Source: Bacteroidota bacterium
GTDB taxonomy: Bacteria > Bacteroidota > Bacteroidia > Bacteroidales > JAHJDW01
Assembly: GCA_043800975.1 (NCBI GenBank)
Contig: JAZDMK010000325.1
Coordinates: forward strand, 4,001 to 68,000
Length of the DNA: 64,000 nucleotides
Direction: 5' to 3'
The position numbers and the translations under genes are program-made. This document shows positions 3,505 through 59,847 of this stretch, piece after piece. Every line of letters starts with the position of its first letter. Position 1 is the first letter of the stretch. The notes under the pieces are model-generated. The model searched no databases. It was not told where the DNA came from and saw only the letters and a list, made by a program, of their open reading frames with translations.

Positions 3505-3660
3505 ATTCAGTAATCCCTTGACATAGGCAAAAGTATTCAGTCCGACGAGGCGGATCAGTTATGGGACAAAGTGACCTTGTCCAAATCATTTTGGCCAATT
3601 TTAATTAATTACAGATAAGCACTTTAACAAATTTCTTTCATTTTTTTTGCTTTAGGGTAA

Positions 3661-3689
3661 TAACATTTTGCCTTCGAATCTTATTAAGG
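3661..3689 (+). promoter_or_regulatory. Module P1 copy b: TAACA-N14-CTTATTAAGG (variant downstream half)
   Basis: Preceded by GGGTAA as in copies c and d, with the same spacer length. It lies 90 nt before the ATG at 3779. Confidence 0.4.
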
Positions 3690-3778
3690 CTTTTGTAAGG
3701 CGGGTTGATTTCAGTTTTACGGTTGAAACGGAATAAACCCTTAGTGCAAAAAAAGAATAAGGCCAAACAAAGTTTAAC

Positions 3779-10569: not shown

Positions 10570-10635
10570 CATACATTGTTTGTCACGTTATGCGTTACAC
10601 TTGTTACCTTGCAATATTGTCCTACGCACTGGCCA

Positions 10636-10752
10636 TTTACTTTCGGTTTTATCCCACGCACGGGCTTTTTACTTTCGGTATTATCCAACGCGATTGGCAA
10701 GGTCGCGCCGGCGCTAGCGGCGCGAATCACTTTTTTGTCGCCACAAAAAAGT
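10636..10752. repeat. 24-nt direct repeat pair plus two adjacent perfect hairpins
   Basis: TTTACTTTCGGTNTTATCCNACGC at 10636-10659 and 10668-10691. Hairpins TCGCGCCG/CGGCGCGA (10703-10725) and ACTTTTTTGT/ACAAAAAAGT (10729-10752). Confidence 0.8.
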
Positions 10753-11198
10753 AATCAAAAAAACGCTTTCACCCGAATATGCGTCCTACACACAAGCCAC
10801 TGCGAAAAACTTCCAAAGGCCGGGCATGGCAGGCTCCCAGTTACAAACAGATTTTAGTTATTGTTCATCCCAACAGGAAGCCTGAATATGCCCTTGTCGC
10901 ACAAGCCAACACGGAAGCTTTTCCGCAGTTCCGCATGTCGGGTGTTTTACTAACATATCAATAAATTTATAGGCGTTCGAGAGCTCCCACCATACGATGG
11001 TTCGGTTGCTGTTTAACAGCGATCAGGTTTGCTTTTGAGCTACTTTCAGCTGCTCATAAACTCAACCAGCTGCGATGGTTTTGGTTGGAGTGATTATTTG
11101 TGTTGTATAGCAACTACAATTAAAAAGGACGCGCATTCAAACGTATTGAAAAAGCGTTAGCAAGAAACAGATAAAAACCAATAGCTCCGCAGGAGCTC

Positions 11199-11490
11199 AA
11201 ACAATCGCTGCGTAGCAGCTACATTATAGAACAGCAGCATTAAAGGATATGAGATTGAAAACAAGGTGAGTTGAGGGGAGGGCCCTGCGCTAAGAAAAAA
11301 GTGTCTGAGTCCGCCTTAGCGGACGAGTTTTTTTTCGGGGTTAAAACTCACCGTAGTTTTCACGAATAGGCTTTACGCTGCGAGTTTTCTTTTGGCTCCA
11401 CCATTTTCTTTGGCGATCCAAAGAAAAGGTGGAATGTCTTTGCAGTCGTAGACTGCTGATACACGATAAGTAATTTGGCCTGTGCGCAGG
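11199..11490 (+). ncRNA. Copy A of a two-copy structured element (candidate ncRNA or structured mobile-element remnant)
   Basis: Shares seven conserved blocks with 34119-34385, and its helices differ by compensatory changes. No frame is coding in both copies. A possible terminator ATCCGACATCGGATTTTTT lies at 11582-11600. Confidence 0.4.
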
Positions 11491-11598
11491 ATAATATCGC
11501 AAAGTATTCCCGCGCAACATTGGCTCGTGGGAAACTATAATTACAAAATATAAGCTCGTGCGCAGGCATTCTGTATCCAGCATCCGACATCGGATTTT

Positions 11599-11762
11599 TT
11601 CGTACTTCGTTGGAAAGTCACTCGTAACTATTAAAAAAAAAGAAAAGCGCTGACCGTGCGCAAGCTTTCCATTTCTGGCTTCTGACTTCGGTCTCCGGTC
11701 TACTTCGTAGTTCGTACGTTCGTACTCATTCGTACTTAGTTGGAAAGTCGCTCGTAACTATT
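11599..11762. repeat. 34-nt imperfect direct repeat and TTCGTAC word repeats
   Basis: TTCGTACTTCGTTGGAAAGTCACTCGTAACTATT (11599-11632) and TTCGTACTTAGTTGGAAAGTCGCTCGTAACTATT (11729-11762). Four TTCGTA words lie between 11703 and 11736. Confidence 0.85.
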
Positions 11763-11776
11763 TCCACCCAGGGTAA

Positions 11777-11805
11777 TAACATTTTTCCTTCTCGCCGGAT
11801 TAAGG
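11777..11805 (+). promoter_or_regulatory. Module P1 copy c: TAACA-N14-CGGATTAAGG
   Basis: GGGTAATAACATTTTTCCTTCTCGCCGGATTAAGGCA is near-identical to copy d. It lies 245 nt before the ATG at 12050. Confidence 0.45.
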
Positions 11806-11932
11806 CATTAGAAACTAAAGTTTTTTTCATTTCCGGCCGAAAGAGTGTGTGTTGTTCGATAGATTTTTCTTTACGGTCGGATTCTTAAAAATGCAAGTTG
11901 ACAGAATGATATTATTAAACCCAAATAATAAA

Positions 11933-11965
11933 CAGCGGAAGCCGAAAAGCTGAGATAGAGTAGGC
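11933..11965 (+). promoter_or_regulatory. Module P2 copy b: CAGCGGAAGCCGAAAAGCTGAGATAGAGTAGGC
   Basis: Conserved core. Upstream TTGACA...TATTAAACCCAAATAATAAA is homologous to the extended module at 17414 and 21134. It lies 85 nt before the ATG at 12050. Confidence 0.5.
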
Positions 11966-12049
11966 GTTATTTCAAAACATAATCCTGCCTGTATTAAAAG
12001 TCCCGTACAGGCTGGCATTAAACCGGGACTCTCATTTAAATTAATAACT

Positions 12050-13156: not shown

Positions 13157-13182
13157 CAAACCATTTACTTATGATTATCAAA

Positions 13183-13215
13183 CAGCGGAAGCCGAAAAGC
13201 TGTGATAGAGTAGGC
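13183..13215 (+). promoter_or_regulatory. Module P2 copy c: CAGCGGAAGCCGAAAAGCTGTGATAGAGTAGGC
   Basis: Conserved core ending 20 nt before the ATG at 13236. Confidence 0.5.
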
Positions 13216-13235
13216 ATTCACTTTTAATTTAATTT

Positions 13236-16828: not shown

Positions 16829-16914
16829 CGTTATTGGTTAATAGTTATACGTTATTCGTGAAACTCTCCTTCACTTGAATACCATCTATTAACCATTAAC
16901 GAATAACGAATAAC
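16829..16914. repeat. Imperfect inverted repeat built from ACGTTATT / AATAACG words
   Basis: CGTTATTGGTTAATAG (16829-16844) against CTATTAACCATTAACG (16886-16901): 16 bp with 1 mismatch. CGTTATTCG also pairs with CGAATAACG. Confidence 0.75.
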
Positions 16915-16932
16915 TTTTTCCAAAGAGGGTAA

Positions 16933-16960
16933 TAACATTTTTCCATCTCGCCGGATTAAG
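16933..16960 (+). promoter_or_regulatory. Module P1 copy d: TAACA-N14-CGGATTAAG
   Basis: GGGTAATAACATTTTTCCATCTCGCCGGATTAAGGCA, 42 nt before the ATG at 17002. Confidence 0.45.
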
Positions 16961-17001
16961 GCAATAAATGAGATTCTGTTTTATTCAAAAAACCCCAAAA
17001 A

Positions 17002-17406: not shown

Positions 17407-17444
17407 TATTTTTTTGAATGAATGTATTAACCCAACATAACAAA

Positions 17445-17477
17445 CAGCGGAAGCCGAAAAGCTGCGAGAGAGTAGGC
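17445..17477 (+). promoter_or_regulatory. Module P2 copy d: CAGCGGAAGCCGAAAAGCTGCGAGAGAGTAGGC
   Basis: Part of a ~75-nt stretch nearly identical to 21134-21205. It ends 21 nt before the ATG at 17499. Confidence 0.5.
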
Positions 17478-17498
17478 ACAATTAAACTATCAATCTCT

Positions 17499-21104: not shown

Positions 21105-21165
21105 ATTGAAACACTTAAGAGATGTTGTATTTTTTTGAACGAATGTTTTAACCCAACATAACAAA

Positions 21166-21198
21166 CAGCGGAAGCCGAAAAGCTGAGACAGAGTAGGC
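21166..21198 (+). promoter_or_regulatory. Module P2 copy e: CAGCGGAAGCCGAAAAGCTGAGACAGAGTAGGC
   Basis: Extended homology from TTTTTGAACGAATGTTTTAACCCAACATAACAAA. It ends 21 nt before the ATG at 21220. Confidence 0.5.
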
Positions 21199-21219
21199 GA
21201 TAATTAAACAACTATTTTC

Positions 21220-21726
21220 ATGGCTTTATTAAACGAATTAACGCTCGATCAAATGGTCGACCAGGCATTAGAAATGCAGAATCTTTCCGAAAATGATTTG
21301 CTCGTTAAGATGGGCACCATCATGGACAACAACGGATATCAGGTGTTGACTGCAGGCCCGCTTCTTTCAGAAGTTCATCAGGAAGGACATCTTTCTGTAA
21401 AAAGCATTGTGGCATTTCACACAGCTAAAGAACTTTCAACTGATGATCCCAAAGAAGAAGGAAAACGTTTTATCGATCGCTTGCTGGCTCAAATCAAACA
21501 TGAGATCTGTACAAACAAAAACATTTATAACTGGCTTGTGAATGATAATTCCGATCTTAAGAAAGAAGCTATCAAAAAAATTATCAGCATTGCCCTCACA
21601 ACACTCGGGTTAGCTGTTGCCGGTTGGGTCATTGCATTGCTTGTAGTTGCCATTGCTTTTCTACTTAAGCAGGGATATATTGCATTTTGCTCTCCTTTAT
21701 GGGACACCGAAGGTAAGCCCGTTTGA
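21220..21726 (+). CDS. Hypothetical tail-anchored membrane protein
   Basis: Soluble N-terminal domain with a C-terminal TM segment IISIALTTLGLAVAGWVIALLVVAIAFLL. Confidence 0.5.
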   Translation: MALLNELTLDQMVDQALEMQNLSENDLLVKMGTIMDNNGYQVLTAGPLLSEVHQEGHLSVKSIVAFHTAKELSTDDPKEEGKRFIDRLLAQIKHEICTNKNIYNWLVNDNSDLKKEAIKKIISIALTTLGLAVAGWVIALLVVAIAFLLKQGYIAFCSPLWDTEGKPV

Positions 21727-22921: not shown

Positions 22922-24940
22922 ATGACTCGTCAGGAAGCTGAAGCTAAATTAAACATCACTTTTGGTCTCGAAAGATTTTATAATAATCAATGGGAAGCGA
23001 TTGAAAAAATTCTGAAAGGGGAGCATGTACTTTTAATCGAAAAAACAGGCTTTGGCAAATCTTTATGTTTTCAATTTCCGGCTACTCTCTTCAGTGGTAC
23101 TACCATTATTTTTTCTCCATTGATCGCTCTTATGAGGGATCAGGTTAAAAAACTTAATAACCTTGGAATAGACGCAAGGTGCATCAACAGTGAACAAACG
23201 CCTGAAGAAAACACTCGTATTATCAATGATGCAGTAGAAGGGAAAATAAAAATTTTATACATAGCGCCGGAACGACAGGAAAATACTGAATGGTTTGAAG
23301 CTACCCGAAAGATGAAACTTTCGATGGTCGTCGTGGACGAAGCACATTGTATATCCGTCTGGGGGCATGACTTCAGACCTGCATTTAAAAGAATCATTTC
23401 ATTAGTCAATCTGCTGCCCCGCGAGTTGCCTGTGCTTGCTACAACAGCAACAGCCACAAAAAAAGTAGAAGCCGATATTGCTGCGCAAATGGGCAGTAAT
23501 CTTACAATAATCCGGGGAAACCTGATGCGCCCCAATTTCAGGCTTTATGTAGCTCAGGTAAAATCAGAAGATGAGAAAATGATCTGGTTGGGTCAACACA
23601 TTCCAAAACTATCCGGATCCGGTGTGCTTTATACAGGTACACGTGTAGATACAGAGATTTATTCAAAATGGTTTGAATATCTTGGTATTTCAGCTGTTGG
23701 TTATAATGCTGGTTTAGACGCCGATTCGCGTATCGATATTGAAAACGGTCTGATGTCAAACAAATGGAAGTGTGTTATCTCAACCAATGCATTGGGTATG
23801 GGTATTGATAAACCGGATATACGATTTATTATACATACCCAGATACCTCAGTCTCCGGTTCATTATTATCAGGAAATAGGCCGTGCGGGCCGTGATGGAA
23901 ACCCGGCATTTGTCATTCTGTTTTATAATCCCAAAGACAAAACATTGCCCGAGGCTTTTATTGAAAGTGGAAGGCCTTCCGTTGCTAAATATGAAAAAGT
24001 AATTCAGGCTTGTAGAAACGAAATGTTGGGCGAACGTGAACTTATGCGCAAAACAAATCTGAAGCAAACTCAGATCAGGGTAATCAAAGCCGACCTGATC
24101 GAACAAAAAATTCTAAGGGAAGTTACATCAGGGGGGCATAAAAAACTTGAGTATATCACAAACGCTCCTGCATTAAACACCAAAGCATTTGAAGAATTAA
24201 AAACCATCAAGACAGCTGACCTTGATAAAATGATCGGGTATGTAAATACAACTTCTTCCCGCATGAAATACCTGTGCGACTTTCTGGGAGATTCTTCCGA
24301 AATGGATTTTAAAAATTGTGACAACACCGGAATGAAAAAAATAATTATTGAGGATTCTCCCGAGTGGACACAGAAACTGAGCGACTACAGAGAAAATTAT
24401 TTTCCGCTTCTTGAAGTTGAAAAGCCGGAACTCAATCTTGTAAACGGTGTAGCAGCCTCGTATTATGGATTTTCAAATGTGGGTACTGTGTTGCATCGTT
24501 GTAAATATGAAAACGGAGGTGACTTTCCGGATTTCCTTATAAAACTGACATTAAAAGCATTTCGAAAAAAGTTCGGGAATGAAATTTTTGATCTCGTTCT
24601 GTATGTCCCTCCTACTAAGTCCGGCGAGCTTGTTAAAAATTTTGCTGTAAAGATTGCCGGTGTTTTGAAATTTCCCCTCTCGCATAAGTTATCAAAACAA
24701 AGACCTACCAGCGAACAAAAGATTTTCGAAAACGCAATTCTGAAAACTGACAATGTTAAGGATGCATTTGTTTTTGAGAATCCTGCTGAAATTACCGGAA
24801 AAAATATACTTCTTATTGATGATATTTTCGACAGCGGTGCAACCGTGAAGGAAATTGGAAAATATTTAACTACTTTAGGGGCGTTAAAAATTGCACCTTT
24901 AATTATTGCCCGCACTGTAGGAGGAGATTTGAATGACTAA
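22922..24940 (+). CDS. RecQ-family helicase fused to a ComF-like phosphoribosyltransferase domain (PsyrT/ShosT-like toxin)
   Basis: GFGKSLCFQ (Walker A), VVDEAHCISVWGHDFRPAF (DEAH), YYQEIGRAGRDG (motif VI). C-terminal PRTase signature ILLIDDIFDSGATVKE. Confidence 0.8.
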   Translation: MTRQEAEAKLNITFGLERFYNNQWEAIEKILKGEHVLLIEKTGFGKSLCFQFPATLFSGTTIIFSPLIALMRDQVKKLNNLGIDARCINSEQTPEENTRIINDAVEGKIKILYIAPERQENTEWFEATRKMKLSMVVVDEAHCISVWGHDFRPAFKRIISLVNLLPRELPVLATTATATKKVEADIAAQMGSNLTIIRGNLMRPNFRLYVAQVKSEDEKMIWLGQHIPKLSGSGVLYTGTRVDTEIYSKWFEYLGISAVGYNAGLDADSRIDIENGLMSNKWKCVISTNALGMGIDKPDIRFIIHTQIPQSPVHYYQEIGRAGRDGNPAFVILFYNPKDKTLPEAFIESGRPSVAKYEKVIQACRNEMLGERELMRKTNLKQTQIRVIKADLIEQKILREVTSGGHKKLEYITNAPALNTKAFEELKTIKTADLDKMIGYVNTTSSRMKYLCDFLGDSSEMDFKNCDNTGMKKIIIEDSPEWTQKLSDYRENYFPLLEVEKPELNLVNGVAASYYGFSNVGTVLHRCKYENGGDFPDFLIKLTLKAFRKKFGNEIFDLVLYVPPTKSGELVKNFAVKIAGVLKFPLSHKLSKQRPTSEQKIFENAILKTDNVKDAFVFENPAEITGKNILLIDDIFDSGATVKEIGKYLTTLGALKIAPLIIARTVGGDLND

Positions 24941-26072
24941 CGAAGCTGCATACTGGATTGCCCTTGCCCATCTTCCACGATGGGGTCATGCTAAGATTAA
25001 TAATCTTATTATTAAATTTTATCATGATAATAAAATCAGTCCGGCCGATTTTTTTCATCTCAGCGATGAAGAATGGAGCAAGAATTATCAGCTCGATTTT
25101 CGGGATATTAATCAATTGAAGGAAGCGCGTGAAGACCTGCCTAATCTTGCTTTTCTTTCCGAGAAAATGCAAAGCGAGGGTTACGAAATAATTCCTATTA
25201 CTTCGCCTGAATATTCGGCAAACCTGAAAGAGAATCTTAAAATTGCACATGCACCGGCTCTTATTTATGTAAAGGGAAATCGTGAAATACTGCTCGAAAA
25301 GTCTATTGCTATTGTAGGTTCACGAAACGCTACAGAACTATCGCTTAAATTCACCGATAACATTGCGCAGCTTGCAAGCAAAGAATACAAAGTTGTTGTC
25401 AGTGGTTTTGCAAAAGGAGTCGATAAACAGGCGCTCGATTCTGCTATCACCTACAAAGGTCAGAGCATCATTGTACTTCCGCAGGGTATTATGACTTTCA
25501 GCAGTGGCTTTAATAAATACTACCGCCAAATTGTAGATGGTGACGTACTTGTATTAAGCACCTTTTTCCCGAAAGCCCCCTGGAAAGCTGAATTGGCGAT
25601 GGCCCGAAATCCGATTATCTATGGCCTGGCTCATGAAATCTATGTGGCTGAATCTTCCGACAAAGGAGGTACATGGTCGGGTGTGATGGATGGATTGAGG
25701 AAGAACAGAAAAATATTTGTGCGAAAACCGGAGAATTTCGAGAATAATGCAAACAATCTTTTAATCTCTAAAGGCGCTGTTCCGGTCGACTTCAACGGAA
25801 ACACTTTGTCGGGATATAGTTCCGGCGATGTACAAACAACTTTACCACTTGCAGGAGAACCTGAAATATCGTACGAGAATAAAATTCTGGAAGTATTAAA
25901 AACAGGATCTTTTCCGGTGAAGGAAATTATTAAAAAGCTAAATCTTAACTGGACCGATCATCAAATGCGTAAATTTCTTAAGTCGCAAAAAGATGTGGAA
26001 GAAATTAAAAAGAAAACAATCCACTACACCTATAAAACCAATATCCCGATTCAGCCTACATTATTTGATTAG
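24933..26072 (+). CDS. DprA/Smf-like Rossmann-fold protein (PsyrA/ShosA-like antitoxin)
   Basis: 8-nt overlap with the upstream gene. SIAIVGSRNATELSLKFT...VVVSGFAKGVDKQALDSAI...IIVLPQGI matches the DprA core pattern. Confidence 0.75.
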   Translation: MTNEAAYWIALAHLPRWGHAKINNLIIKFYHDNKISPADFFHLSDEEWSKNYQLDFRDINQLKEAREDLPNLAFLSEKMQSEGYEIIPITSPEYSANLKENLKIAHAPALIYVKGNREILLEKSIAIVGSRNATELSLKFTDNIAQLASKEYKVVVSGFAKGVDKQALDSAITYKGQSIIVLPQGIMTFSSGFNKYYRQIVDGDVLVLSTFFPKAPWKAELAMARNPIIYGLAHEIYVAESSDKGGTWSGVMDGLRKNRKIFVRKPENFENNANNLLISKGAVPVDFNGNTLSGYSSGDVQTTLPLAGEPEISYENKILEVLKTGSFPVKEIIKKLNLNWTDHQMRKFLKSQKDVEEIKKKTIHYTYKTNIPIQPTLFD

Positions 26073-26093
26073 CAACCAACTCAACGAACCCCA

Positions 26094-26432
26094 ATGAGTA
26101 ACCCCTCCGATATCTCCACCCTCACCGCAGCCCTCATCCAATTCCGCAACGAACGCGACTGGGAACAGTTCCATAATTCAAAGGATCTCGCGCTCGCCAT
26201 TTCTATCGAAGCAGCCGAGCTGCTGGAATGCTTTCTGTGGAAAGGGAATGAAGAAGCCGACAAAGAAAAGATCAAAGAAGAACTGGCCGATATTTTTGCA
26301 TTTGCATTTCTGCTGGCTGATAAACACAAGTTGGATGTGAAAGAAATTGTGCTGGATAAAATCAAACGCAACTCCGAGAAGTACCCTGTTGATAAGGCAA
26401 AGGGAACGGCGAAGAAATATGATGAACTATGA
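26094..26432 (+). CDS. MazG-like nucleotide pyrophosphohydrolase
   Basis: FRNERDWEQFHNSKDLALAISIEAAELLECFLWK and EELADIFAFAFLLA are typical of small all-alpha MazG/dCTPase-type NTP-PPases. Confidence 0.7.
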   Translation: MSNPSDISTLTAALIQFRNERDWEQFHNSKDLALAISIEAAELLECFLWKGNEEADKEKIKEELADIFAFAFLLADKHKLDVKEIVLDKIKRNSEKYPVDKAKGTAKKYDEL

Positions 26433-28141
26433 TTGACTCCATAAATAGTCAGGAATTTAGAATTTCAAATTACCCATTTACGGATGATGTACTTGAGGTA
26501 ATCAGGAAAGATAGTCAGGTGCGTGAAACCTGGCCATTGGTTTATATAATTAAGGATGACATTCTAAACGAAGCCTATGTTGGAGAAACCACCAATGTAA
26601 TTTCCAGAATGTACAATCATCTTACTAATAGAGACAGAAAGAAATTAAAACATCTTCATTTAATAACTTGTAATGTTTTCAATAAGTCTGCTACACTTGA
26701 TATTGAGGCAAATCTGATTAAGTATATTGCTGCCGACGGTAAATACAAATTGCAAAATGGCAATGCCGGTCTAGCAATGCATGAGTTCTATCAAAAAAAA
26801 CAATACGAGGACTTATTTCAAAAAATCTGGACAGAATTACAACAACGAAAAATCACCCAGAAAAATATTTCAGAAATTAACAACTCTGATCTGTTTAAAT
26901 TTTCGCCATACAAGACGTTAAGTACTGATCAGCAGATCGCAATTTTTGAAATAGTAAATATTTTAAGCAAGCATACTGAGGGGACTTTGTTTGTTGAAGG
27001 CAGCGCGGGCACTGGCAAAACTATACTCGCTATTTATCTTATTAAATTATTACTTAGTGATATTGATGAGTATGTGCTGGATGAATTTGATTCTGTTGAT
27101 AGAGATCAGGTGGAACTGTTCCTGAGTATAAAGAAAAAATACCCTAACCCGAAAATTGCATTTGTCGTCCCAATGAAGTCTCTCAGGAAAACACTACAAA
27201 ATGTTTTTAATAATATCAAAGGGCTAAGTTCAAAAATGATAATAAGCCCTTTTAGTGTTACAAAAATGGATTATGATATTTTAATTGTTGATGAAGCGCA
27301 CAGGCTCAAGAGAAAAGTCAACCTCTCGAGCCCTGGTGAATATTTACTGTTTGATAAAAACAACGAGAAGCTTAATCTCGATAAGTCTTGTACACAACTA
27401 GACTGGGTTATAAAACAAAGTAAATATCAGATATTGTTTTATGATGAAATGCAATCAATAAAGCCTACCGATGTGCGCGCAACTGATTTTAATAATCTGT
27501 TTAATAAACCTGAAGTAAAGCAAGTAAAACTAAAATCCCAGTTTCGTGTTAAAGGTGGTGCAGACTACATGACATATATTGATGATCTTTTAAGCTGCCG
27601 GCTGACTGACAGAACTAAGTTGTACGAATCATCTGAATATGAATTAATCCTTTATGAAAAAATAGGAGATTTGGTTTCATCAATCGATAAAAAGAACACT
27701 GAAAATGGATTGTCACGGTTGGTTGCTGGTTATGCATGGGAATGGAAGTCAAGGAATAATGACGTTTGTGATATTGAGATCGAAGATCTAAAGTTTAAAT
27801 GGAATATTACTGATACTGACTGGATAAATTCTGTGTCATCAGGTGCGGTAAGTGCTGAAGTTGGTTGCATACATACTACACAGGGTTATGATTTAAACTA
27901 TACTGGTGTGATATTCGGAAACGAAATTTCATATGACATAGAAAAAAACGAAATAGTGATTAATCAGAAGAGTTATTTTGATACAAAAGGGAAAAACTCA
28001 ATTAAGGATCCGGCTGAATTGAAGAGGTACATAATTAATATTTATAAAACACTTTTGATGCGTGGGATAAATGGAACCTTCATTTATGTTTGTGATAAAA
28101 ATTTACTGGACTATTTTAAGAAACACATAAAAGCATTTTAA
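26429..28141 (+). CDS. GIY-YIG nuclease domain fused to a DUF2075-type P-loop NTPase (Schlafen-helicase-like)
   Basis: ATGA overlap with mazG-like gene. VYIIKDD...EAYVGETTNVISRMYNH (GIY-YIG-like), EGSAGTGKTILAIYL (Walker A), ILIVDEAHRL (Walker B). The C-terminal GCIHTTQGYDLNYTGVIFG is typical of DUF2075. Confidence 0.65.
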   Translation: MIDSINSQEFRISNYPFTDDVLEVIRKDSQVRETWPLVYIIKDDILNEAYVGETTNVISRMYNHLTNRDRKKLKHLHLITCNVFNKSATLDIEANLIKYIAADGKYKLQNGNAGLAMHEFYQKKQYEDLFQKIWTELQQRKITQKNISEINNSDLFKFSPYKTLSTDQQIAIFEIVNILSKHTEGTLFVEGSAGTGKTILAIYLIKLLLSDIDEYVLDEFDSVDRDQVELFLSIKKKYPNPKIAFVVPMKSLRKTLQNVFNNIKGLSSKMIISPFSVTKMDYDILIVDEAHRLKRKVNLSSPGEYLLFDKNNEKLNLDKSCTQLDWVIKQSKYQILFYDEMQSIKPTDVRATDFNNLFNKPEVKQVKLKSQFRVKGGADYMTYIDDLLSCRLTDRTKLYESSEYELILYEKIGDLVSSIDKKNTENGLSRLVAGYAWEWKSRNNDVCDIEIEDLKFKWNITDTDWINSVSSGAVSAEVGCIHTTQGYDLNYTGVIFGNEISYDIEKNEIVINQKSYFDTKGKNSIKDPAELKRYIINIYKTLLMRGINGTFIYVCDKNLLDYFKKHIKAF

Positions 28142-28370
28142 TGACAAGCGACATTGAAGGATGTTATGTGTGCTTTACAGTTAAAGCAGCGGAGAATTTT
28201 TTTTGGGATAGGTTGATTAAGACATAAGCATATTTGGTACATATCTAATCCCTCAAAATTCGAATTTTTAAAAGAAAAAAGTTATTGTTTTTTTCGAAGA
28301 AAAATATGCATTTGTGTTAAACAATGGGTATAATTTTGTAGTTTCGCATACGAAACCAAAATAATATACC

Positions 28371-29798
28371 ATGCTATCAGTCAAGGAAACTGCAGAAATA
28401 AAGGGTGTAAGCGAACAGTACATTCGCAGGCTTATAAAAAATAATGAAATACCAGCCGACAGGGTTGGTAAAACATGGTTAATTGATGAAGCTTTTCTTG
28501 ATACTATGGAAAATGGTGGTGAGAAGCAACAAAAAAAATTAAAAATTGATGATGTAGTTTCAAAGAAAACCCCATCTGATAAGAAATTAAATGTTTTGTC
28601 TTTCTTCACTGGTGCTATGGGTCTTGACCTTGGTTTAGAAAAAGCAGGTTTAAATGTGTTACTTGCTTGTGAAATTGATACACCTATCAGGAACACTATC
28701 GTTTCAAACGATACTAAGGTTGGGCTTATTGGTGATGTAAGAAGCTATACTTCTTCTGAAATTCTTCATTATGCAAATGTAAAATCAAAAAAACAAGTTG
28801 ATGTCATAGTTGGAGGGCCACCTTGTCAGGCATTCTCAACAGCAGGTAAAAGAATGGGCTTTGAAGATGAAAGGGGAAATGTCTTCCTGCGGTTTATTGA
28901 AGTCATTTCTGATATCAAACCTAAATATGCAGTTATTGAAAATGTTCGTGGTTTACTATCATCAAAATTAACAATCGATATTGATGATGACATTGTAAAA
29001 AAAATGGATTTTAATCCTAAAGAAACACCTGGTTCAACACTTTATTATATTACTAAAAAATTGGAAAAGGCTGGGTATAAAGTTACTTTTAACCTTTATA
29101 ATACTGCAAATTTTGGAGTGCCACAAATTCGTGAACGTGTTGTAATTGTATGTACTCTTGGTGCAAAACCAGTACCTTTCCTAAAGCCAACACATTCAGA
29201 AAATCCAAATCACAAGCTTAAACACTGGGTTACTTTTAAAGAAGCTGTTACTGGAATGAAAGAATCTGATATGCATTACATACCTTTTAGTGCTAAAAGA
29301 TTAAAATATATTGAAATGCTAAAGCCAGGTCAAAATTGGCGCGATCTTCCAGTAGATATTCAACCTGAGGCAATGGGAGGCAGTTTCTTTTTAGGTGGAG
29401 GTAAAACAGGATTTTATCGTCGACTTTCCTGGGACAGACCTGCTCCAACAATAGTTACACATCCAGCAATGCCAGCAACTGAGCTTGCCCATCCAACAAA
29501 ATCACGACCTCTGTCAGTTGAAGAATATAAAAGAGTTCAACAATTTCCCGATAATTGGTCTATACAGGGTAGCATAGTTGAACAATATCGACAGATTGGT
29601 AATGCAGTCCCGGTAGGCTTGGGTAAAGCTATTGGTCTTTCCATTATTAATCATAGTTCAGGAAAAGATGTAAAAGCGATTAACGACTTTCCTTATTCAC
29701 GATACAAGAATACTTCAAGTGAAAACTTTTTTTCAACGTTATACCTACCTCCAAAAAAAGAAAGAAAACCAACAAATCAATTAACGCTGCAGTTTTAG
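28371..29798 (+). CDS. DNA (cytosine-5)-methyltransferase with N-terminal excisionase/MerR-type HTH
   Basis: HTH LSVKETAEIKGVSEQYIRRLIKNNEIPADRVGKTWLI. Motif I FFTGAMGLDLG, motif IV GGPPCQAFSTAG, motif VI ENV, motif X QIGNAVP. Confidence 0.9.
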   Translation: MLSVKETAEIKGVSEQYIRRLIKNNEIPADRVGKTWLIDEAFLDTMENGGEKQQKKLKIDDVVSKKTPSDKKLNVLSFFTGAMGLDLGLEKAGLNVLLACEIDTPIRNTIVSNDTKVGLIGDVRSYTSSEILHYANVKSKKQVDVIVGGPPCQAFSTAGKRMGFEDERGNVFLRFIEVISDIKPKYAVIENVRGLLSSKLTIDIDDDIVKKMDFNPKETPGSTLYYITKKLEKAGYKVTFNLYNTANFGVPQIRERVVIVCTLGAKPVPFLKPTHSENPNHKLKHWVTFKEAVTGMKESDMHYIPFSAKRLKYIEMLKPGQNWRDLPVDIQPEAMGGSFFLGGGKTGFYRRLSWDRPAPTIVTHPAMPATELAHPTKSRPLSVEEYKRVQQFPDNWSIQGSIVEQYRQIGNAVPVGLGKAIGLSIINHSSGKDVKAINDFPYSRYKNTSSENFFSTLYLPPKKERKPTNQLTLQF

Positions 29799-29856
29799 TT
29801 CACACGTAAACTGAATTATTAAAAAAAGTCTATATTTGGAACTATAAATTTATTTT

Positions 29857-30579
29857 ATGGCCACCAAATTTGAAATTATTGACTTTAGTATTCCCAATGC
29901 TATAAAATTTGCTAAAGTTTTCGCAGCTGAGAAATACACAGAAGATCTTGAAATAGTTTTAAGAAATGCTCTTGCTGATCAAAGACGTATTCCATCTGTA
30001 AAAATAAGAGGTACTAATCCGGTAACTATTGAGGAATACATGAATAAGTGGGTTCGAGCTTACTTAAATGGATATGAAAATCGACCCTCAGTTAGAACAG
30101 GAAACCCATCTGCTACTATACCAGATGAAATTGTTGAAATTATTTCTCATATTCGGCTTCCGAACTTGTCTGATAATGAAGTTCAAAATATGTCTTTAGG
30201 GCATTCATTGTTTATGACTGTAGAAAACCTTATCGGAGATATTCTTGAAGAATATTTATCTGTAAAGCTAAAACCGAATGGCTGGTATTGCGCTTGGGGA
30301 AGTACTATAGATGCTGTAGATTTTTGCCAGCGTGATGGCACATTGTTGCAAATTAAGAATAGTGACAACTCTGAAAACAGCTCTTCTAGCAGGGTACGCC
30401 AAGGAACAGATATTAAAAAATGGCATCGTCGCAAATCTACCGCTGGTCTTTTTATTTGGGAAATATTGGTTGAGATGACAGGTGTTTTAACATTGTCAGA
30501 AGAAGATTTTAGATCTTTTGCAACAGATTTAGTGAGAAACAACCCTAACTGTATTTATATACCAAATACTCCAGTTTAA
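29857..30579 (+). CDS. Putative Type II restriction endonuclease cognate to the m5C methyltransferase
   Basis: Lies 58 nt downstream of the methyltransferase gene on the same strand. 240 aa. Possible PD-(D/E)xK-like element IDAVDFCQRDGTLLQIKN. The family was not identified. Confidence 0.45.
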   Translation: MATKFEIIDFSIPNAIKFAKVFAAEKYTEDLEIVLRNALADQRRIPSVKIRGTNPVTIEEYMNKWVRAYLNGYENRPSVRTGNPSATIPDEIVEIISHIRLPNLSDNEVQNMSLGHSLFMTVENLIGDILEEYLSVKLKPNGWYCAWGSTIDAVDFCQRDGTLLQIKNSDNSENSSSSRVRQGTDIKKWHRRKSTAGLFIWEILVEMTGVLTLSEEDFRSFATDLVRNNPNCIYIPNTPV

Positions 30580-30687
30580 CATAATGAAACAAGAACAAGT
30601 AGCATTTCATAACCATACTATTCTCATAAAGTACATTTATAATTTTTACTCTTGCAGAATCGAAAAACAAAATTGCAAGCAAATGGA

Positions 30688-30723
30688 TTCGATCATTTTG
30701 CCGACATCGGGAAAATGATCGAA
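30688..30723. promoter_or_regulatory. Perfect 12-bp inverted repeat TTCGATCATTTT-N12-AAAATGATCGAA
   Basis: Read directly from the sequence. The loop contains a nested CCGA..TCGG. No T-tract follows. Confidence 0.6.
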
Positions 30724-30775
30724 CGGGTTATGGATGCAAATTTTTACGAATTCGCTTAATGAAGAAGAAGACTAA

Positions 30776-31405
30776 ATGAAACCCATTTTAGAATTCATAA
30801 ATTTTCTTGAATCGTTCAGGTTACAAAACCCTGATACTTCTGAAAATTTGTATTCTTTGGATTCATCTGAAGGTTTAATTAGGCGGCATAACCTGAAAAC
30901 CTATCTTTCAAAAATGCTTTCTATCAAACCGGAAATAATGTTGCTTGGTGAAGCACCCGGATATAAAGGATGCCGTCTTTCAGGCATTCCCTTCACGAGT
31001 GAAAGATTATTAAAAACAAATGCATTCTTCTGTAATGAACCTTATGAAATAATTAATAGCAAACCCGAGAGCGAGCAGTCGGCTACCATTGTCTGGGGTG
31101 CATTAAATCAATATGAAAAGATGCCACTGATATGGAATATTTATCCCTTTCATCCGCACAAAGAAAATGATCTGAAAAGCAATCGTACGCCCTCTGAAAA
31201 AGAATTAGACGACGGAGTAAGAATATTAAAAGAACTGCTTACAATTTTCAGCATAAAACAATTTATTGCCATAGGAAGAAAAGCCGAGATAAAGCTCAAA
31301 GAAAACGGATATGATTGCACCTACGTCAGGCATCCGGCCAATGGCGGGAAAAGAGAATTTGTTGAAGGATTGAATAGATGTTTAAGAATAAAAATTGAAA
31401 TTTAA
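30776..31405 (+). CDS. Uracil-DNA glycosylase superfamily protein (family 4/5-like motifs, no Fe-S cysteines seen)
   Basis: Motif A LLGEAPGYKGCRLSGIPFTSE and motif B-like YVRHPANGG. Confidence 0.6.
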   Translation: MKPILEFINFLESFRLQNPDTSENLYSLDSSEGLIRRHNLKTYLSKMLSIKPEIMLLGEAPGYKGCRLSGIPFTSERLLKTNAFFCNEPYEIINSKPESEQSATIVWGALNQYEKMPLIWNIYPFHPHKENDLKSNRTPSEKELDDGVRILKELLTIFSIKQFIAIGRKAEIKLKENGYDCTYVRHPANGGKREFVEGLNRCLRIKIEI

Positions 31406-32399: not shown

Positions 32400-33929
32400 T
32401 TATTTCTTCCCTGTCTGATACTCGCCCCACCATTTAAAGAAATATTCTTTTGATCCATGATGGTTGGATGAAAAATATTCATTCTGCTGCCAAATTGAGC
32501 CATTTGTTATTTTATGAAGAGCATTAAGGCATTCATATACAACTCCAACCTTAACTCCTTGTATGTCATTTTCCCAATTTTCCTTTTTTAAAATCTCAAT
32601 TAATTGCGGTATGTATTCTTCAAATTTGTATTCTCCAATAGTATACACGGCAGCACAACGAATAGCATTATTATCGCTGTTCAAAGCTTTTTTTATGGTT
32701 TGATCACTGCTTATACTGGCAATGGTTAAAAACAATTTTGGCACAATCCCTTCAATAATTGTTGATTCCAAAGGAGCATCATCAGGATCCTGATAACTGT
32801 CACCATGCTCCAGAAAAGTAGCACCCCAGCGCCTAGATGAAACAATGCTGTGTTTAAATGTTGTTTTATATACAACTGTATCTTGAATAAATAATGCAAT
32901 GGTACCATTTACAGAAGCTGAGCAATACAGGTTTTTTTTTGTATAACCATCATCCTTCTCAGCAGTGCAGGTGTATTTAACTTTTAAAATCATGGGCTCA
33001 GTATCTTTACTAAAATCATTTATTCCCGCTAACGAAAGAATCTTTTTTGTATAGTTGCTGACAACGGTTCTTGGCTGCAATTTATCTGTGTTCGGAAATA
33101 AGCCTTCTATTTCGACTTTAATTCCATTTTTCTCCTTAAACAAAATCTTGGCGACATACAACATACCTGCCTCGTATTCGTTTCTTATAAACAAATCCAA
33201 TGCGGCCCAATATTGTTTGTTTTTAAAAAAGACATTCCCGATTTTGATTTCTCCCGGACGATACTTTAACTTTTTATATATCTCCAGTGCTTTCTCAATG
33301 TTTTTATCATCAAAATAGGCATCTCCAATTGCAATGATTTTTGTTTTGCAATCAAAATAGTAAGTATTATAGATTTCATAAGCCTTCTCATAGTCTTTGT
33401 TTAAAAAGTAACCATCTGCAACTTCAATAATTTTCTTTTTTAAATTAAACTTTTTATAGATTGTCATTGCTTTTTCAAAGTTCTTATCTGCTAGATATTG
33501 ATCGGCAACTTTTATCATTCCATCCTTATAATCATATTTGCTAAAACACTCGTAAGCTTTGTCATAATTTTTATTTGTAAAATAGGCATCTCCCGCTTTA
33601 ATAACTCCTTTTTCATACTTGTAAACGTCATAGGCTGAATATGCTTTATCAATATCATTGTTTCTCAAATATGCTTCTGCAACTTTATAAACACCATCCT
33701 TAAAAGTTGCTTTGGTATAATACTTCAAAGCATTTTCAAAATTGTTTTGATTAAAACATTCGTCGCCTAGTGCTAAATAACATTTCGTATTGTCGCCGGG
33801 CTTTTGTTTTTCACAATATTTTTCAGCTTTATCAAATTTTTTCTTTTCAACCCATTTCGCATAATTTTGAGCGGATATGCCGGAAAGAAATAAAAATGAA
33901 ACGGCAACGGTAATTAATATTCTCATCAT
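32400..33929 (-). CDS. Secreted repeat protein (degenerate TPR/Sel1-like ~23-aa repeats, HEAT-like C-terminal part)
   Basis: Signal peptide MMRILITVAVSFLFLSGISAQ. Recurrent xKAxExYxKxxYKDGxIKVAD repeats. Confidence 0.6.
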   Translation of the reverse strand: MMRILITVAVSFLFLSGISAQNYAKWVEKKKFDKAEKYCEKQKPGDNTKCYLALGDECFNQNNFENALKYYTKATFKDGVYKVAEAYLRNNDIDKAYSAYDVYKYEKGVIKAGDAYFTNKNYDKAYECFSKYDYKDGMIKVADQYLADKNFEKAMTIYKKFNLKKKIIEVADGYFLNKDYEKAYEIYNTYYFDCKTKIIAIGDAYFDDKNIEKALEIYKKLKYRPGEIKIGNVFFKNKQYWAALDLFIRNEYEAGMLYVAKILFKEKNGIKVEIEGLFPNTDKLQPRTVVSNYTKKILSLAGINDFSKDTEPMILKVKYTCTAEKDDGYTKKNLYCSASVNGTIALFIQDTVVYKTTFKHSIVSSRRWGATFLEHGDSYQDPDDAPLESTIIEGIVPKLFLTIASISSDQTIKKALNSDNNAIRCAAVYTIGEYKFEEYIPQLIEILKKENWENDIQGVKVGVVYECLNALHKITNGSIWQQNEYFSSNHHGSKEYFFKWWGEYQTGKK

Positions 33930-34118
33930 TGAAATTTTTAATTTGAAATGCCAGAAATTATAGCAACATTAATTAAAAAATTAATACTAAAGTGCTTCAA
34001 ATTGATATTTCTTTGTCTCCTCACAAACCTTTCCATTAAAAACTAATTTATACTACCAACCTTTCACCAACCATCCGCCGTGGCGGACACCCCAAACGCA
34101 ACATGTCCGTTGGAGTTA

Positions 34119-34385
34119 AAACAATCGCTGCACAGCAGCTACAATTTGAAATGCGGCATTAAAGAATGCGAGTATTGAAAACAAAGTGCAATTTTTGTGG
34201 AAGCCACGAGCTAAGAAAAAGGTGTTTGACGAACGCAGTGAGGAGTTCTTTTTCGGGGAAAATTGCACTGTAGTTTTCGCGAGCAGGCTTTACGCCGCTA
34301 GACCTTCTTTGCCTGCTTTCTTTGGGCAATGCAAAGAAAGCGGGTCGCGTCGTTGGAGCGACGCGAAACAAGGCCTGTGCGCTGG
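34119..34385 (+). ncRNA. Copy B of the two-copy structured element
   Basis: Has the conserved blocks AAACAATCGCTGC..AGCAGCTACA, GCATTAAAG, CTAAGAAAAAGGTGT, GAGTTCTTTTTCGGGG, GTAGTTTTCGCGA, AGGCTTTACGC and GGCCTGTGCGC. Its helices covary with copy A. Confidence 0.4.
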
Positions 34386-35119
34386 CAAAAGTAAAATGCA
34401 AATAGAAAAAAATTATTAATTATTAAAAAATACACCACCTTTAGTAAGCCACGAAATCCCAAATGAAACCAAGGCAATAGTCTCTGTCCAGAAATAAGCT
34501 GCGAATTTTCGTCTCTACCGAGTCTCATAAAAATCACAATGTGAACCAGACATACCACCATAATACAACCGCAAACAACATATATCCGGTTTCGTTTACG
34601 ACGTGTGGGGTTGAACAAGGAGCAAGGAACAAGGATTTGCGATTTAAGAAGTGAAAAGAGATGAAGACGGGTATGGGAATGACGGATGGATTTACGGGAA
34701 GAGCGGGGAAATAAAAAAAGCGAAAAACACGCAAGGCACACAAAAAAAACACCGGCACAAATGAGGTGAATGCTGCCTGTTGCATTGTCTTCACCGGTGC
34801 CGTGGGTGGTGGGAAAAAAGGCGAGCCCCAGCGCGGCCAGGCCCGCTATGTTGGCCAGCCAGTCGTCGATACGCGAAGGGCCGCTGTAGAAAAACAGAAA
34901 AAAAGCCACCGCACAAATGGCCCCCACAAACACATTGCCCATGCAGGTATAATAATAATGGCTGACCGAGGGCTGTATGCTTTCGCCGCACAGGATCCAG
35001 GTTCCCGCCATCAGCACAAAAGGCAGCAGTATACCGATCCATCCCACCGCGCGCCGTATGGCCCGGTAGGAGAAGCGTTCGCGTCGTCCGCCGCGGCGGA
35101 GATGGTTGAGTGCTGTCAT
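34298..35119 (-). CDS. Multi-pass membrane protein, family uncertain; 3' boundary doubtful
   Basis: Hydrophobic segments GWIGILLPFVLMAGTWIL, SVSHYYYTCMGNVFVGAICAVAFFLFFY, LAALGLAFFP, IHLICAGVFFVCLACFSLFLF. The C-terminal ~40 codons run into structured element copy B, so the true stop may differ. Confidence 0.5.
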   Translation of the reverse strand: MTALNHLRRGGRRERFSYRAIRRAVGWIGILLPFVLMAGTWILCGESIQPSVSHYYYTCMGNVFVGAICAVAFFLFFYSGPSRIDDWLANIAGLAALGLAFFPTTHGTGEDNATGSIHLICAGVFFVCLACFSLFLFPRSSRKSIRHSHTRLHLFSLLKSQILVPCSLFNPTRRKRNRIYVVCGCIMVVCLVHIVIFMRLGRDENSQLISGQRLLPWFHLGFRGLLKVVYFLIINNFFLFAFYFCQRTGLVSRRSNDATRFLCIAQRKQAKKV

Positions 35120-35337
35120 GGGTGAATTCTTTTTTGTTGTGCTTGTTCATTTACATAAAATTATTTTTGCACTTTGTGATGCAGGATATGGAAGGGTCGG
35201 GAGACCGGAGACCGAAGACGGAAATGGAAGAGACCGAAGACAGAAGTCTGTAGTGCGAAGAAATGTCTTTGAAGATTTGGGATGAGTGAAGAAGTTAGTG
35301 GCTTTGCTGACTTGTGCAGTTTGTTGAGCAGAATGGA

Positions 35338-35715
35338 GATCTTGATGATCACTACAGTGATTTTCAAAGCCCGTGTATTGATCTTGATGATAACTACAAT
35401 GATCTTCAAAGCCCGTGTATTGATTTTGATGATCACTACTTTGATCTTCAAAACCCGTGTATTGATTTTGATGATCACTATAATGATTTTCAAAACCCGT
35501 GTATTGATTTTGATGAACACTACATTGATCTTCAAAGCCTGTGTATTGATTTTGATGAACACTACATTGATCTTCAAAACCCGTGTATTGATTTTGATAA
35601 TCACTACAATGATCTTCAAAGCCCGTGTATTGATTTTGATGAACACTACATTGATCTTCAAAGCCCGTGTGTGGATTTTGATGATCCCCGAATTGATCAA
35701 CAGGTACTGTGTATG
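35338..35715. repeat. Tandem repeat, 9 units of 42 bp (last unit degenerate)
   Basis: Unit GATYTTGATGAWCACTACNNTGATYTTCAAARCCCGTGTATT. Open in at least four of six frames (track ORFs 35147..35731 -, 35161..35700 -, 35282..35851 +, 35314..35733 +). Coding status is unresolved. Confidence 0.9.
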
Positions 35716-35805
35716 GAATTTGTTGAAACATAAACGTGCTCCAATAAAAAAGGCAATGCCCCGGGTGGAGCTTTGCCTTTATTGCAGTGAATTTACGAAA
35801 CCGGA

Positions 35806-36492
35806 CTACAAAATGATTGCAGATATAAAATCAATCCATTCGGGAACATAGGTTTCCGAATCAGCTACCGGTTTTCTGCCCTGAGGCATCGTTACAGCAG
35901 TAGCAAAATAAACGGTAGTGGCGTGAGGCAGGCCGGTGATGGTGATGTTGGATACGATAGTTGGCGGAATAATTTTACAACTGTTTTCATCGGTCGGCGT
36001 TGTGGTCCAGCGCCAGTGATAAATAACACCGGTTTTCACGGCCTTGGTACGAATTTGCGCCATACCTTCAGCAATTTTAATTACTTCAAAACTGCGCTGG
36101 TGCGGTGTGAATTCTTTTTTCACCTGAAAACCGGCACTTGTCACAATTTGCACAGCCAGCGGAAGATCGCCGTTTGCTTTTTTGTTGGCCACGCCTTCTA
36201 CAAAATATGCCGTATCGCTGATCGTATTCATGATCAGGGTAGCCTGCTCCTGCTCAAGGCTGGTGAGGGTTGCCGAACGGTTGGTTTTGCGTGAGGTGTG
36301 CGTATTTTCAAGGTTGGTGGCTTGTGTACCCATGTCAACCAGTGAAACGGGAAGTTTGGCTAATTCAGCCACAGTGAAGTAAGTGTTGCCATTAAAGGCT
36401 TTGATGATGGCCCGAAGAAACGAAACCAGTTCGGTGCTGGTGAGCTGATGCAGATTGAGTGCAATCACGACTCGTTTAATACTTTTTTTCAT
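35806..36492 (-). CDS. Hypothetical protein
   Basis: 228-aa ORF with no signal peptide. The C-terminal part looks like a beta-sandwich (ITITGLPHATTVYFATAV). Confidence 0.5.
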   Translation of the reverse strand: MKKSIKRVVIALNLHQLTSTELVSFLRAIIKAFNGNTYFTVAELAKLPVSLVDMGTQATNLENTHTSRKTNRSATLTSLEQEQATLIMNTISDTAYFVEGVANKKANGDLPLAVQIVTSAGFQVKKEFTPHQRSFEVIKIAEGMAQIRTKAVKTGVIYHWRWTTTPTDENSCKIIPPTIVSNITITGLPHATTVYFATAVTMPQGRKPVADSETYVPEWIDFISAIIL

Positions 36493-51814: not shown

Positions 51815-52078
51815 ATGAATAACGAATTAACACCGATCACAATAATCCATAGTTCCGGAATACTGTTAAAAATCCTTCTTCAGTCTCAATCAAAAGAAAT
51901 GAACTTCAGAGAACTGCAGTCAGAATCCAATCTGGATAACATGTGTTTTCACATGTCAATTGGATATTTGTTCAATGAAGGATCCATAATTTTTTTTGAA
52001 GTGGAAGATGATTTAAGAATTCGATTATTGAAAACATCGGAGGAGTTAACTAAAAACAAATCCCAATGTCAGTTCTGA
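51815..52078 (+). CDS. Small hypothetical protein (87 aa), possibly winged-helix-like
   Basis: ORF preceding the efflux operon. The functional guess is weak. Confidence 0.35.
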   Translation: MNNELTPITIIHSSGILLKILLQSQSKEMNFRELQSESNLDNMCFHMSIGYLFNEGSIIFFEVEDDLRIRLLKTSEELTKNKSQCQF

Positions 52079-59844: not shown

Positions 59845-59847
59845 TCG

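Follow-up and report, generated by a model that had tools for sequence, protein, structure and literature searches.

We examined a 64,000-nt stretch of DNA (hereafter the window; contig JAZDMK010000325.1, positions 4,001 to 68,000) from a metagenome-assembled genome (MAG) of a Bacteroidota bacterium (GCA_043800975.1), in which a non-coding element occurs twice, as copy A (11199-11490) and copy B (34119-34385). Chromosomal genes of Bacteroidota surround both copies, among them those for proteins sorted by the type IX secretion system (T9SS), two-component systems, TonB receptors and a MacAB-TolC pump. On the + strand, an amidohydrolase gene lies 560 nt downstream of copy A and no gene follows copy B; on the - strand, a gene for a tetratricopeptide repeat (TPR) protein (32400-33929, -) lies 190 nt downstream of copy B and none follows copy A. 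The ~1.5 kb around copy A is rich in repeats and essentially non-coding. No transposase, integrase, relaxase, Rep or reverse-transcriptase domain was detected with Pfam in the open reading frames (ORFs) scanned, which comprised most of those of at least 120 aa plus the small ORFs beside both copies.

The two copies are 73.5% identical over 234 nt (blastn, E 4e-28), and no third copy was found by blastn in the window. A covariance model of the core scored 183 bits for copy A and 181 bits for copy B, the next best score in the window being 13 bits with filters off. The original prediction, made from the sequence alone, had described a two-copy element with seven conserved blocks and several named helices, and all of these are present where it had placed them. 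Its borders, within which the element is 267-292 nt long, are too narrow: similarity extends ~30 nt further to the left (to ~11170 and ~34090; flank alignment) and 15-20 nt further to the right (to ~11508 and ~34398; flank and unit alignments). There are no sharp boundaries, as similarity fades gradually over ~20-30 nt on both sides, and no target-site duplications, the flanks being CTC...AGG for copy A and TTA...TGG for copy B. The copies have a GC content of 45-48% compared with 38% for the window, and in each of them G exceeds C by 22 (skew +0.17), with negative skew in the flanks.

No conserved ORF was found between the copies, and the ORF comparison bears out the earlier statement that no reading frame is conserved. 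One candidate micro-ORF (AKKKV...EFFFG, in the same frame with a 3-nt indel) was rejected: the frames part immediately after it and the ORFs have 32 and 77 aa. In the annotation of the MAG, no ORF lies inside either element, except for the end of V2A54_16440 (34298-35119, -) that runs into copy B. In this hypothetical protein of 273 aa, the N-terminal half weakly resembles a DUF998 membrane domain and the C-terminal half looks like junk; the final ~29 codons correspond to copy B in reverse complement. The gene was probably disrupted or its call extended too far, and the stretch in copy B looks like read-through.

Folded independently, both copies adopted one and the same architecture, and RNAalifold recovered the same consensus (Table 1). 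It consists of an irregular rod (P2-P6), a branched tip (P7 and P8), two 3' hairpins (P9 and P10) and a possible closing helix (P1). The conserved blocks GCATTAAAG / AGGCTTTACGCYGC and ATTGAAAAC / GTAGTTTTC are mutually paired, which gives the nested rod P2-P5. This rod and further compensatory changes had been missed before, while the helices named at that time were all recovered; the seven blocks are mostly the two strands of P2-P5 and of P8, plus internal loops. The rod has ~30 bp, with P2 (GCRGC/GCYGC), P3 (UAAAG/CUUUA) and P5 (UGAAAAC/GUUUUCR) as consensus helices and with P4 being UAU/AUA in copy A and UGC/GCA in copy B. Its internal loops (AU/C, GA or AA/GG, GAGAU or GAGUAU/CGA, and AA/GUA) are nearly invariant and purine-rich. 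P6 has 8 bp in copy A and 11 bp in copy B with different sequences, and P6, P7, the outer part of P9 and P10 are rewritten between the copies while the rod loops stay conserved. P8 has the consensus GAAAAARG/YYUUUUUC and is topped by a tip hairpin. By inspection, the conserved loops were also compared with a K-turn, a sarcin-ricin motif and a tetraloop receptor, all of which were rejected, as none suits both copies in topology or sequence.

The possible P1 would join GC-U-GCRYAG-CA-GCU to GGC-CUGUGC-GC and be followed by a single-stranded linker before the rod. Its calculated energy is -14 to -18 kcal/mol, compared with -7 kcal/mol for a competing 5' hairpin and -4 to -5 kcal/mol for a competing 3' hairpin. 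We infer that the invariant 5' block and the 3' block GGCCUGUGCGC are the two strands of P1, in competition with these two local hairpins. In both copies, the U-rich linker ahead of P9 can substitute for the 5' strand of P9. Read on the - strand, the 5' end of copy A (11199-11220) is a hairpin followed by GATTGTTT, which resembles a terminator.

Table 1. Parts of the two copies and associated repeats (positions in the window)
Feature	Position	Strand	Basis or remark
Copy A, full conserved span	11170..11508	+	Flank alignment; blastn E 4e-28; unit alignment
Copy A, invariant tail AAACAATC + GCTGC-GTA-GCAGCT	11199..11220	+	Local 5-bp hairpin (-7.0 kcal/mol) or P1 5' strand
Copy A, rod 5' strand: P2 GCAGC, P3 TAAAG, P4 TAT, P5 TGAAAAC, P6 GGTGAGTT	11234..11272	+	Internal-loop bases AT, GA, GAGAT, AA
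Copy A, branched tip: P7 hairpin AGGG/CCCT; P8 GAAAAAAG/TTTTTTTC with cap GTCCGC-CTTA-GCGGAC	11274..11336	+	
Copy A, rod 3' strand: P6 AACTCACC, GTA, P5 GTTTTCA, CGA, P4 ATA, GG, P3 CTTTA, C, P2 GCTGC	11345..11381	+	
Copy A, P9	11398-11432	+	15 bp, one bulge
Copy A, P10	11442-11456	+	6 bp
Copy A, GGCCTGTGCGC, candidate P1 3' strand	11477..11508	+	Opens ~32-nt unit (R orientation) GGCCTGTGCGCAGGATAATATCGCAAAGTATT
Copy B, full conserved span	34090..34398	+	Flank alignment; blastn; unit alignment
Copy B, tail AAACAATC + GCTGC-ACA-GCAGCT	34119..34140	+	Local hairpin or P1 5' strand
Copy B, rod P2-P8: P2 GCGGC/GCCGC, P4 TGC/GCA, P6 AGTGCAATTTT/AAAATTGCACT, P7 GTGG/CCAC, P8 GAAAAAGG/TCTTTTTC	34153..34298	+	
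Copy B, P9	34313-34343	+	12 bp, one U-G wobble valid on + strand only
Copy B, P10	34345-34366	+	8 bp
Copy B, GGCCTGTGCGC (candidate P1 3' strand) + shortened unit	34372..34398	+	
~2.4-3 tandem unit copies, consensus TATTATCCAACGCACGGGCCATTTACTTTCGG, inverse to the ends of copies A and B	10608..10700	+	Repeat search; Tandem Repeats Finder period 32, 2.4 copies, 10615-10691
Two degenerate units, F orientation (as 10608-10700)	10772-10799, 10881-10908	+	Repeat search; alignment
Two tandem ~76-108-nt modules downstream of copy A	11557..11762	+	Repeat search

Both the folding strength and the pattern of substitutions point to a structure under selection. On the + strand, the folding z-scores are -5.0 for copy A and -4.8 for copy B, with 0 of 200 dinucleotide shuffles folding as well; on the - strand they are -5.2 and -3.5. 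In a plain MAFFT alignment, all 59 consensus pairs are standard in both copies and 8 of them have changed on both sides, a number reached in none of 500 partner shuffles. When the partners were slid by 1-3 columns as a control, 0-1 two-sided changes were obtained. A structural alignment made by hand contains 73 pairs, of which 48 are identical, 17 have two-sided and 4 one-sided changes that keep the pairing, 4 occur in a single copy only and none is broken; as this alignment was made to follow the structure, above all in P6, P9 and P10, 17 should be taken as the upper figure and 8 as the conservative one. The structure conservation index from it (consensus energy divided by the mean single-sequence energy) is ~0.9. 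Compensatory changes in the rod and tip include A-U to G-C in P2, two pairs in P4 and one in P8, and the sequences of P6 and P10 are wholly replaced and still form perfect helices at the same positions. The only reasonable reading is that a nucleic-acid secondary structure has been kept by selection, and for a comparison of two sequences it is well supported.

Rfam 15 (4227 models) gave no match over either copy, neither at the gathering threshold nor at E values up to 10. The best sub-threshold score over the copies (Pistol, 19 bits against a cutoff of 34.5) is noise, and in the whole window only one tRNA and five DUF805b motifs passed the gathering threshold. RNase P, transfer-messenger RNA (tmRNA), signal recognition particle RNA, 6S RNA, group I and II introns, riboswitches and ribozymes were all rejected on this ground, and the original prediction had likewise not recognised the element as tmRNA, RNase P, signal recognition particle RNA, 6S RNA or a group II intron domain V; the covariance scan that had been suggested for finding a known family found none.

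A search for homologues in related Bacteroidota and other collections was likewise negative. Pattern scans, for which we used exact and degenerate forms of four conserved blocks plus a purine/pyrimidine-coded two-strand pattern of P3-P5 that matches both copies, revealed no true match in viral contigs, GTDB representative genomes and JGI metagenomes; in one JGI metagenome scan 13 chance matches appeared, 13/13 of which were rejected by nhmmer. There was also no match in a distant blastn search of plasmids and phages, in a related-locus search with the open frame of copy B, or in a HMMER scan of 1.84 billion protein representatives with the 89-aa + frame of copy B. A six-frame chimera of 1167 aa had no match in a 5.8-billion protein set and is uninformative, as it also missed the annotated ORF that overlaps copy B. 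The closest homologues of the amidohydrolase have 71%, 64% and 57-60% amino-acid identity, and the element was not found with nhmmer or the covariance model in ~200 kb of loci from six related organisms, where ordinary genes occupy the syntenic position next to the amidohydrolase gene. The proteins of the window are alone in their 90%-identity clusters, and no close relative of this MAG is present in the collections searched. Either the family is confined to an unsampled lineage, or it is too diverged for exact-seed searching. Within the window, a 26-nt segment upstream of an outer-membrane efflux gene (52011-52036) shares 88% identity with the 5' strand of P3-P5 in copy B, ATTTAAGAATTCGATTATTGAAAAC; it is probably a chance match (E 0.001 within the window), with no matching 3' strand nearby.

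The 3' end of each copy is part of a ~32-nt unit, which starts with the 3' block GGCCTGTGCGC and reads TTTACTTTSGnTATTATCCnnCGCACnGGCC on the - strand. Copy A ends with a full unit and copy B with a unit that carries a 7-nt deletion. Both modules downstream of copy A open with the unit core CGTGCGCARGC (~11557 and ~11655), oriented as at the end of copy A, and the first of them contains a + strand terminator-like hairpin (11582-11595). A search with the unit pattern gave 6 matches in the window against 1.3 expected, 4 of the 6 being at these loci; the unit was not found elsewhere in the window. The 5' block is not a degenerate copy of the unit in either orientation; in the inverted one, local alignments were no better than those of shuffles (p 0.2-0.7). 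The unit may serve as a promoter or operator module, be a repeat to which a protein binds, or be left over from a mobile element. Three more specific identities were rejected: a sigma-54 promoter, for which the spacing is wrong; a dif/Xer site, to which only the GTGCGCA..ATAAT part is similar and of which the XerD arm is missing; and an inverton, as the inverted repeats are imperfect and copy B has one unit only.

Other repeats were observed near copy A. The 32-nt tandem array just follows the terminator of the gene for a 1728-aa T9SS protein. The downstream modules each end with GTTGGAAAGTCNCTCGTAACTATT and include the repeats D2 (37 nt, 73% identity) and D1 (43 nt, 86%), together with a micro-repeat of 2.9 copies of TTCGTACG at 11704-11725. 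The sequence GTTCGTACGTTCGTAC in the same region agrees at 8 of 10 positions, and thus loosely, with what we take to be the ARACGTWCGT motif of the inverted repeats of Bacteroides invertons. In addition, an intergenic repeat of ~56 nt occurs three times on the + strand upstream of gene clusters (11755-11810, 16911-16966 and 3654-3693; 89% and 80% identity), and may be a shared promoter or operator.

Several known systems resemble the element in part. Like the orphan large structured non-coding RNAs (raiA, OLE, HEARO and the Bacteroidetes motifs of the Weinberg/Breaker surveys), it is intergenic, contains no ORF, has a GC content above background and combines a multi-helix fold with covarying helices, conserved loops and a genomic context that gives no function. 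In contrast to those families, which occur in many genomes, the element has no Rfam 15 match and is represented by two paralogues in a single MAG. 6S RNA is a rod of ~180-200 nt that is closed by its 5' and 3' ends and has a large central bubble. With 6S RNA (6S-Flavo, Bacteroidales-1 and Bacillus 6S-1/6S-2) the element shares a long irregular rod and maybe the presence of two paralogues and an end-closing helix. However, its largest internal loop is 5-6 x 3 nt with no large central bubble, the ends take no part in its rod, which is internal, it carries a branched tip and two additional hairpins, it is ~100 nt longer, and no Rfam 6S model matches it.

Miniature inverted-repeat transposable elements (MITEs), repeats of the repetitive extragenic palindromic (REP) type and non-autonomous derivatives of insertion sequences (IS) are also short, non-coding and strongly folded, and one end of the element is a repeated unit that is inverted nearby. 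Unlike them, it lacks a terminal inverted repeat at the DNA level, target-site duplications and, among the ORFs scanned, a nearby transposase, and its two copies in 64 kb are 27% diverged with compensatory rather than random differences. Riboswitch and attenuator leaders share with it a multi-helix domain closed by P1, mutually exclusive pairings and an adjacent terminator-like hairpin, but there is no orientation that puts both copies before a gene, and the neighbours differ without any shared gene class. In its - strand order (end repeat, two hairpins, long imperfect hairpin, end repeat) the element is similar to the msr-msd RNA of retrons; on the other hand, the neighbouring ORFs scanned contain no RVT domain, Rfam retron models do not match, and the pairing of the ends on the - strand is unsupported (p 0.14 and 0.26).

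It is plausible that the element is a new lineage-specific structured non-coding RNA with two paralogues and no known family. In the form that we prefer, to which we would give about an even chance, copies A and B are two paralogous genes for a previously undescribed structured RNA of ~270-300 nt in one poorly sampled Bacteroidota lineage, most likely transcribed from the + strand. Judging from its anatomy, such an RNA might act in trans as a stable scaffold, with the conserved loops binding a protein or another RNA. A role as a cis leader is less likely because the copies share no downstream gene context in either orientation. An open/closed switch between P1 and the local 5' and 3' hairpins could be imagined, and the replacement of the P9 5' strand by the U-rich linker would be a second possible alternative pairing. 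A bolder version, which we regard as rather unlikely, is that the element is the first known member of a new class of large structured RNAs that is confined to an uncultivated Bacteroidota lineage. Such an RNA would be closed by P1, capable of switching and have a 3' end that doubles as one copy of the ~32-nt repeat unit arrayed in inverse orientation nearby, i.e., it would be an RNA coupled to a DNA repeat serving as a protein-binding or recombination site. An RNA of this kind could be a component of an unrecognised mobile or regulatory system.

Several observations weigh against this interpretation. The comparison comprises only two sequences on one contig, and no homologue that could add phylogenetically independent covariation was found by any route. 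Compensatory changes would be preserved equally by a structure in single-stranded DNA or by an RNA from the - strand. P1 is modestly supported, and its 3' strand belongs to a repeat unit that is also present without a partner. Upstream of the two copies, a canonical Bacteroidetes promoter (TAnnTTTG) was found for neither on the + strand, and a + strand terminator is present near copy A only, ~90 nt after it (11582-11595). The sole promoter-like element is on the - strand, where an exact Bacteroidetes -7 box, TACTTTTG, lies at 34393-34386, 4 nt outside copy B; copy A has a near-miss of this box on the same strand, and - strand terminator-like hairpins were flagged at 11219-11207, 11197-11183 and 34139-34127.

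A possible but doubtful alternative is that this structured RNA comes from the - strand, in an ordinary small transcription unit whose promoter is in the ~32-nt unit just to the right of each copy. Such a transcript would start near GCGCACAGGCC, run through P10', P9' and the rod, and end at the GCUGC-NNN-GCAGC hairpin followed by GAUUGUUU, so that the invariant tail AAACAATC is explained as its U-rich tract. Copy B would then be a long structured 5' leader of the TPR gene (32400-33929, -) and copy A a free-standing small RNA, because a second, canonical terminator, better than the first, follows just past it. Apart from the -7 box outside copy B, the 190-nt gap upstream of the TPR gene has no such box, while about half of the genes here have one, and the similarity between the copies covers the box region. 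The tRNA of the window (61305) has TACCTTTG 8 nt upstream, and therefore the -7 promoter rule holds in this organism. The terminator-like hairpins occur in both copies, and the rod, with its Watson-Crick helices, can fold on both strands, as the z-scores indicate. However, there are ~33 such boxes per strand in 64 kb (about one per 2 kb), which makes a chance match possible, and copy A and the upstream units have only the near-misses TACTTTGC, TACTTTCG and TACCTTGC; the conserved hairpin is weak (5 bp, -7 kcal/mol), and no gene follows copy A. The fold itself also speaks for the + strand. Its consensus energy is -89.6 kcal/mol on the + strand versus -75.5 on the - strand; the single folds of copies A and B reach -99.1 and -99.9 versus -89.9 and -82.2 kcal/mol, i.e., 10-18 kcal/mol less on the - strand, and the core rod alone -52.1 and -52.0 versus -45.6 and -37.8 kcal/mol, a loss of 6.5 and 14 kcal/mol. 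All four one-sided helix changes (4/4) are G-U wobbles that are valid on the + strand only and turn into C-A mismatches on the other, where the tip hairpin of copy B is lost as well. An RNA from the - strand would have 22 more C than G and pyrimidine-rich conserved loops. The P1 duplex compares favourably with shuffles on the + strand (-18.4 kcal/mol, p 0.012; -14.4 kcal/mol, p 0.058), which is not the case on the - strand (p 0.14 and 0.26). If an RNA is made, we consider the + strand roughly twice as probable as the - strand. Of the earlier proposal of a + strand structured RNA, the selected structure is well supported and the strand is favoured.

The original prediction had offered the end of a structured mobile element as its other option, and we regard an element acting at the DNA level as an unlikely explanation. 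It would be a remnant or a non-autonomous mobile or recombining element, whose ends are arrays of a ~32-nt protein-binding unit and whose internal fold acts in single-stranded DNA or is incidental. Comparable arrangements would be iteron-like arrays and transposons that have several transposase-binding sites at each end. Consistent with it, the 3' end of both copies is one such unit, which leaves this option some room; 2.4-3 tandem and 2 degenerate inverted units are found 500-870 nt upstream of copy A and two direct cores downstream, the unit pattern exceeds expectation, the element is absent from the syntenic amidohydrolase locus of relatives, and the region of copy A is repeat-rich and essentially non-coding over 1.5 kb. 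Yet among the ORFs scanned there is none with a transposase, integrase, relaxase or Rep domain, the one unit of copy B lacks an inverted partner, target-site duplications are lacking and the similarity fades out slowly at either end. Between the 5' block and the unit there is no significant similarity and hence no terminal inverted repeat, and P1 of copy A requires G-T wobbles. The 27% divergence preserves the structure, with changes compensated over ~70 base pairs spread along the whole length; to our knowledge, transposon ends and MITE copies do not show such compensated divergence. An old segmental duplication of non-functional intergenic DNA, with the structure as a by-product of palindromic sequence, would agree with the presence of two copies only and the lack of homologues. 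We consider it very improbable: at 73% identity helices should break, and because none of the 73 pairs is broken and 17 have changed on both sides, neutral decay of a duplication is excluded as the source of the pattern. On the unfitted alignment, 0/500 shuffles gave as many as the 8 two-sided changes; the slid-partner controls argue against an alignment artefact, and P6 and P10 have been swapped wholesale for new complementary sequences.

Should the preferred interpretation, a + strand structured RNA with two paralogues, be true, a new family of ~280 nt would join the short list of large bacterial structured RNAs. Little is known of regulatory RNAs in Bacteroidota, which as far as we know have no Hfq or ProQ and use unusual promoters and translation signals. 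For a comparison of two sequences, the structural evidence is exceptionally clean. The link to the 32-nt unit is peculiar, and an RNA end coupled to such a DNA unit could hint at a system for regulation or recombination. At present, the practical value is restricted by the single metagenome-assembled contig, with no homologues found and no linked protein.

Additional features of the window were also recorded. The five DUF805b motifs detected with Rfam are all on the + strand (1661-1693, 11932-11966, 13182-13216, 17444-17478 and 21165-21199) and score 44-50 bits, the gathering score being 35.6. Four of the five lie ~20-85 nt upstream of ORF starts and the first lies ~315 nt upstream; several of the downstream ORFs encode T9SS-sorted or secreted proteins, and not DUF805 genes. 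The ~60-90 nt around the motifs are also repeated, with 11904-11998 resembling 21147-21233 and 17416-17477. These modules have the appearance of a leader or promoter that the members of a regulon share, perhaps the regulon of an extracytoplasmic function (ECF)-type sigma factor (2008-2571). A pairing of UUUUCGG of the element with the DUF805b loop was rejected, as 7 nt is at chance level.

Between the two copies lies a defence-type cluster (22922-31405), which comprises a DEAD-helicase fused to a phosphoribosyltransferase domain, DprA, a Schlafen-group-3-like helicase with GIY-YIG, a C5 methylase with a SinI endonuclease, and a UDG-family protein; an AbiEi/AbiEii pair is located further along (59044-60669). 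Finally, a 42-nt tandem repeat (8.3 copies, 90% match) was found at 35338-35686, inside the ORFs 35147-35731 (-) and 35282-35851 (+), and could be either a repeat protein or a non-coding array, Pfam giving a low-complexity match only.

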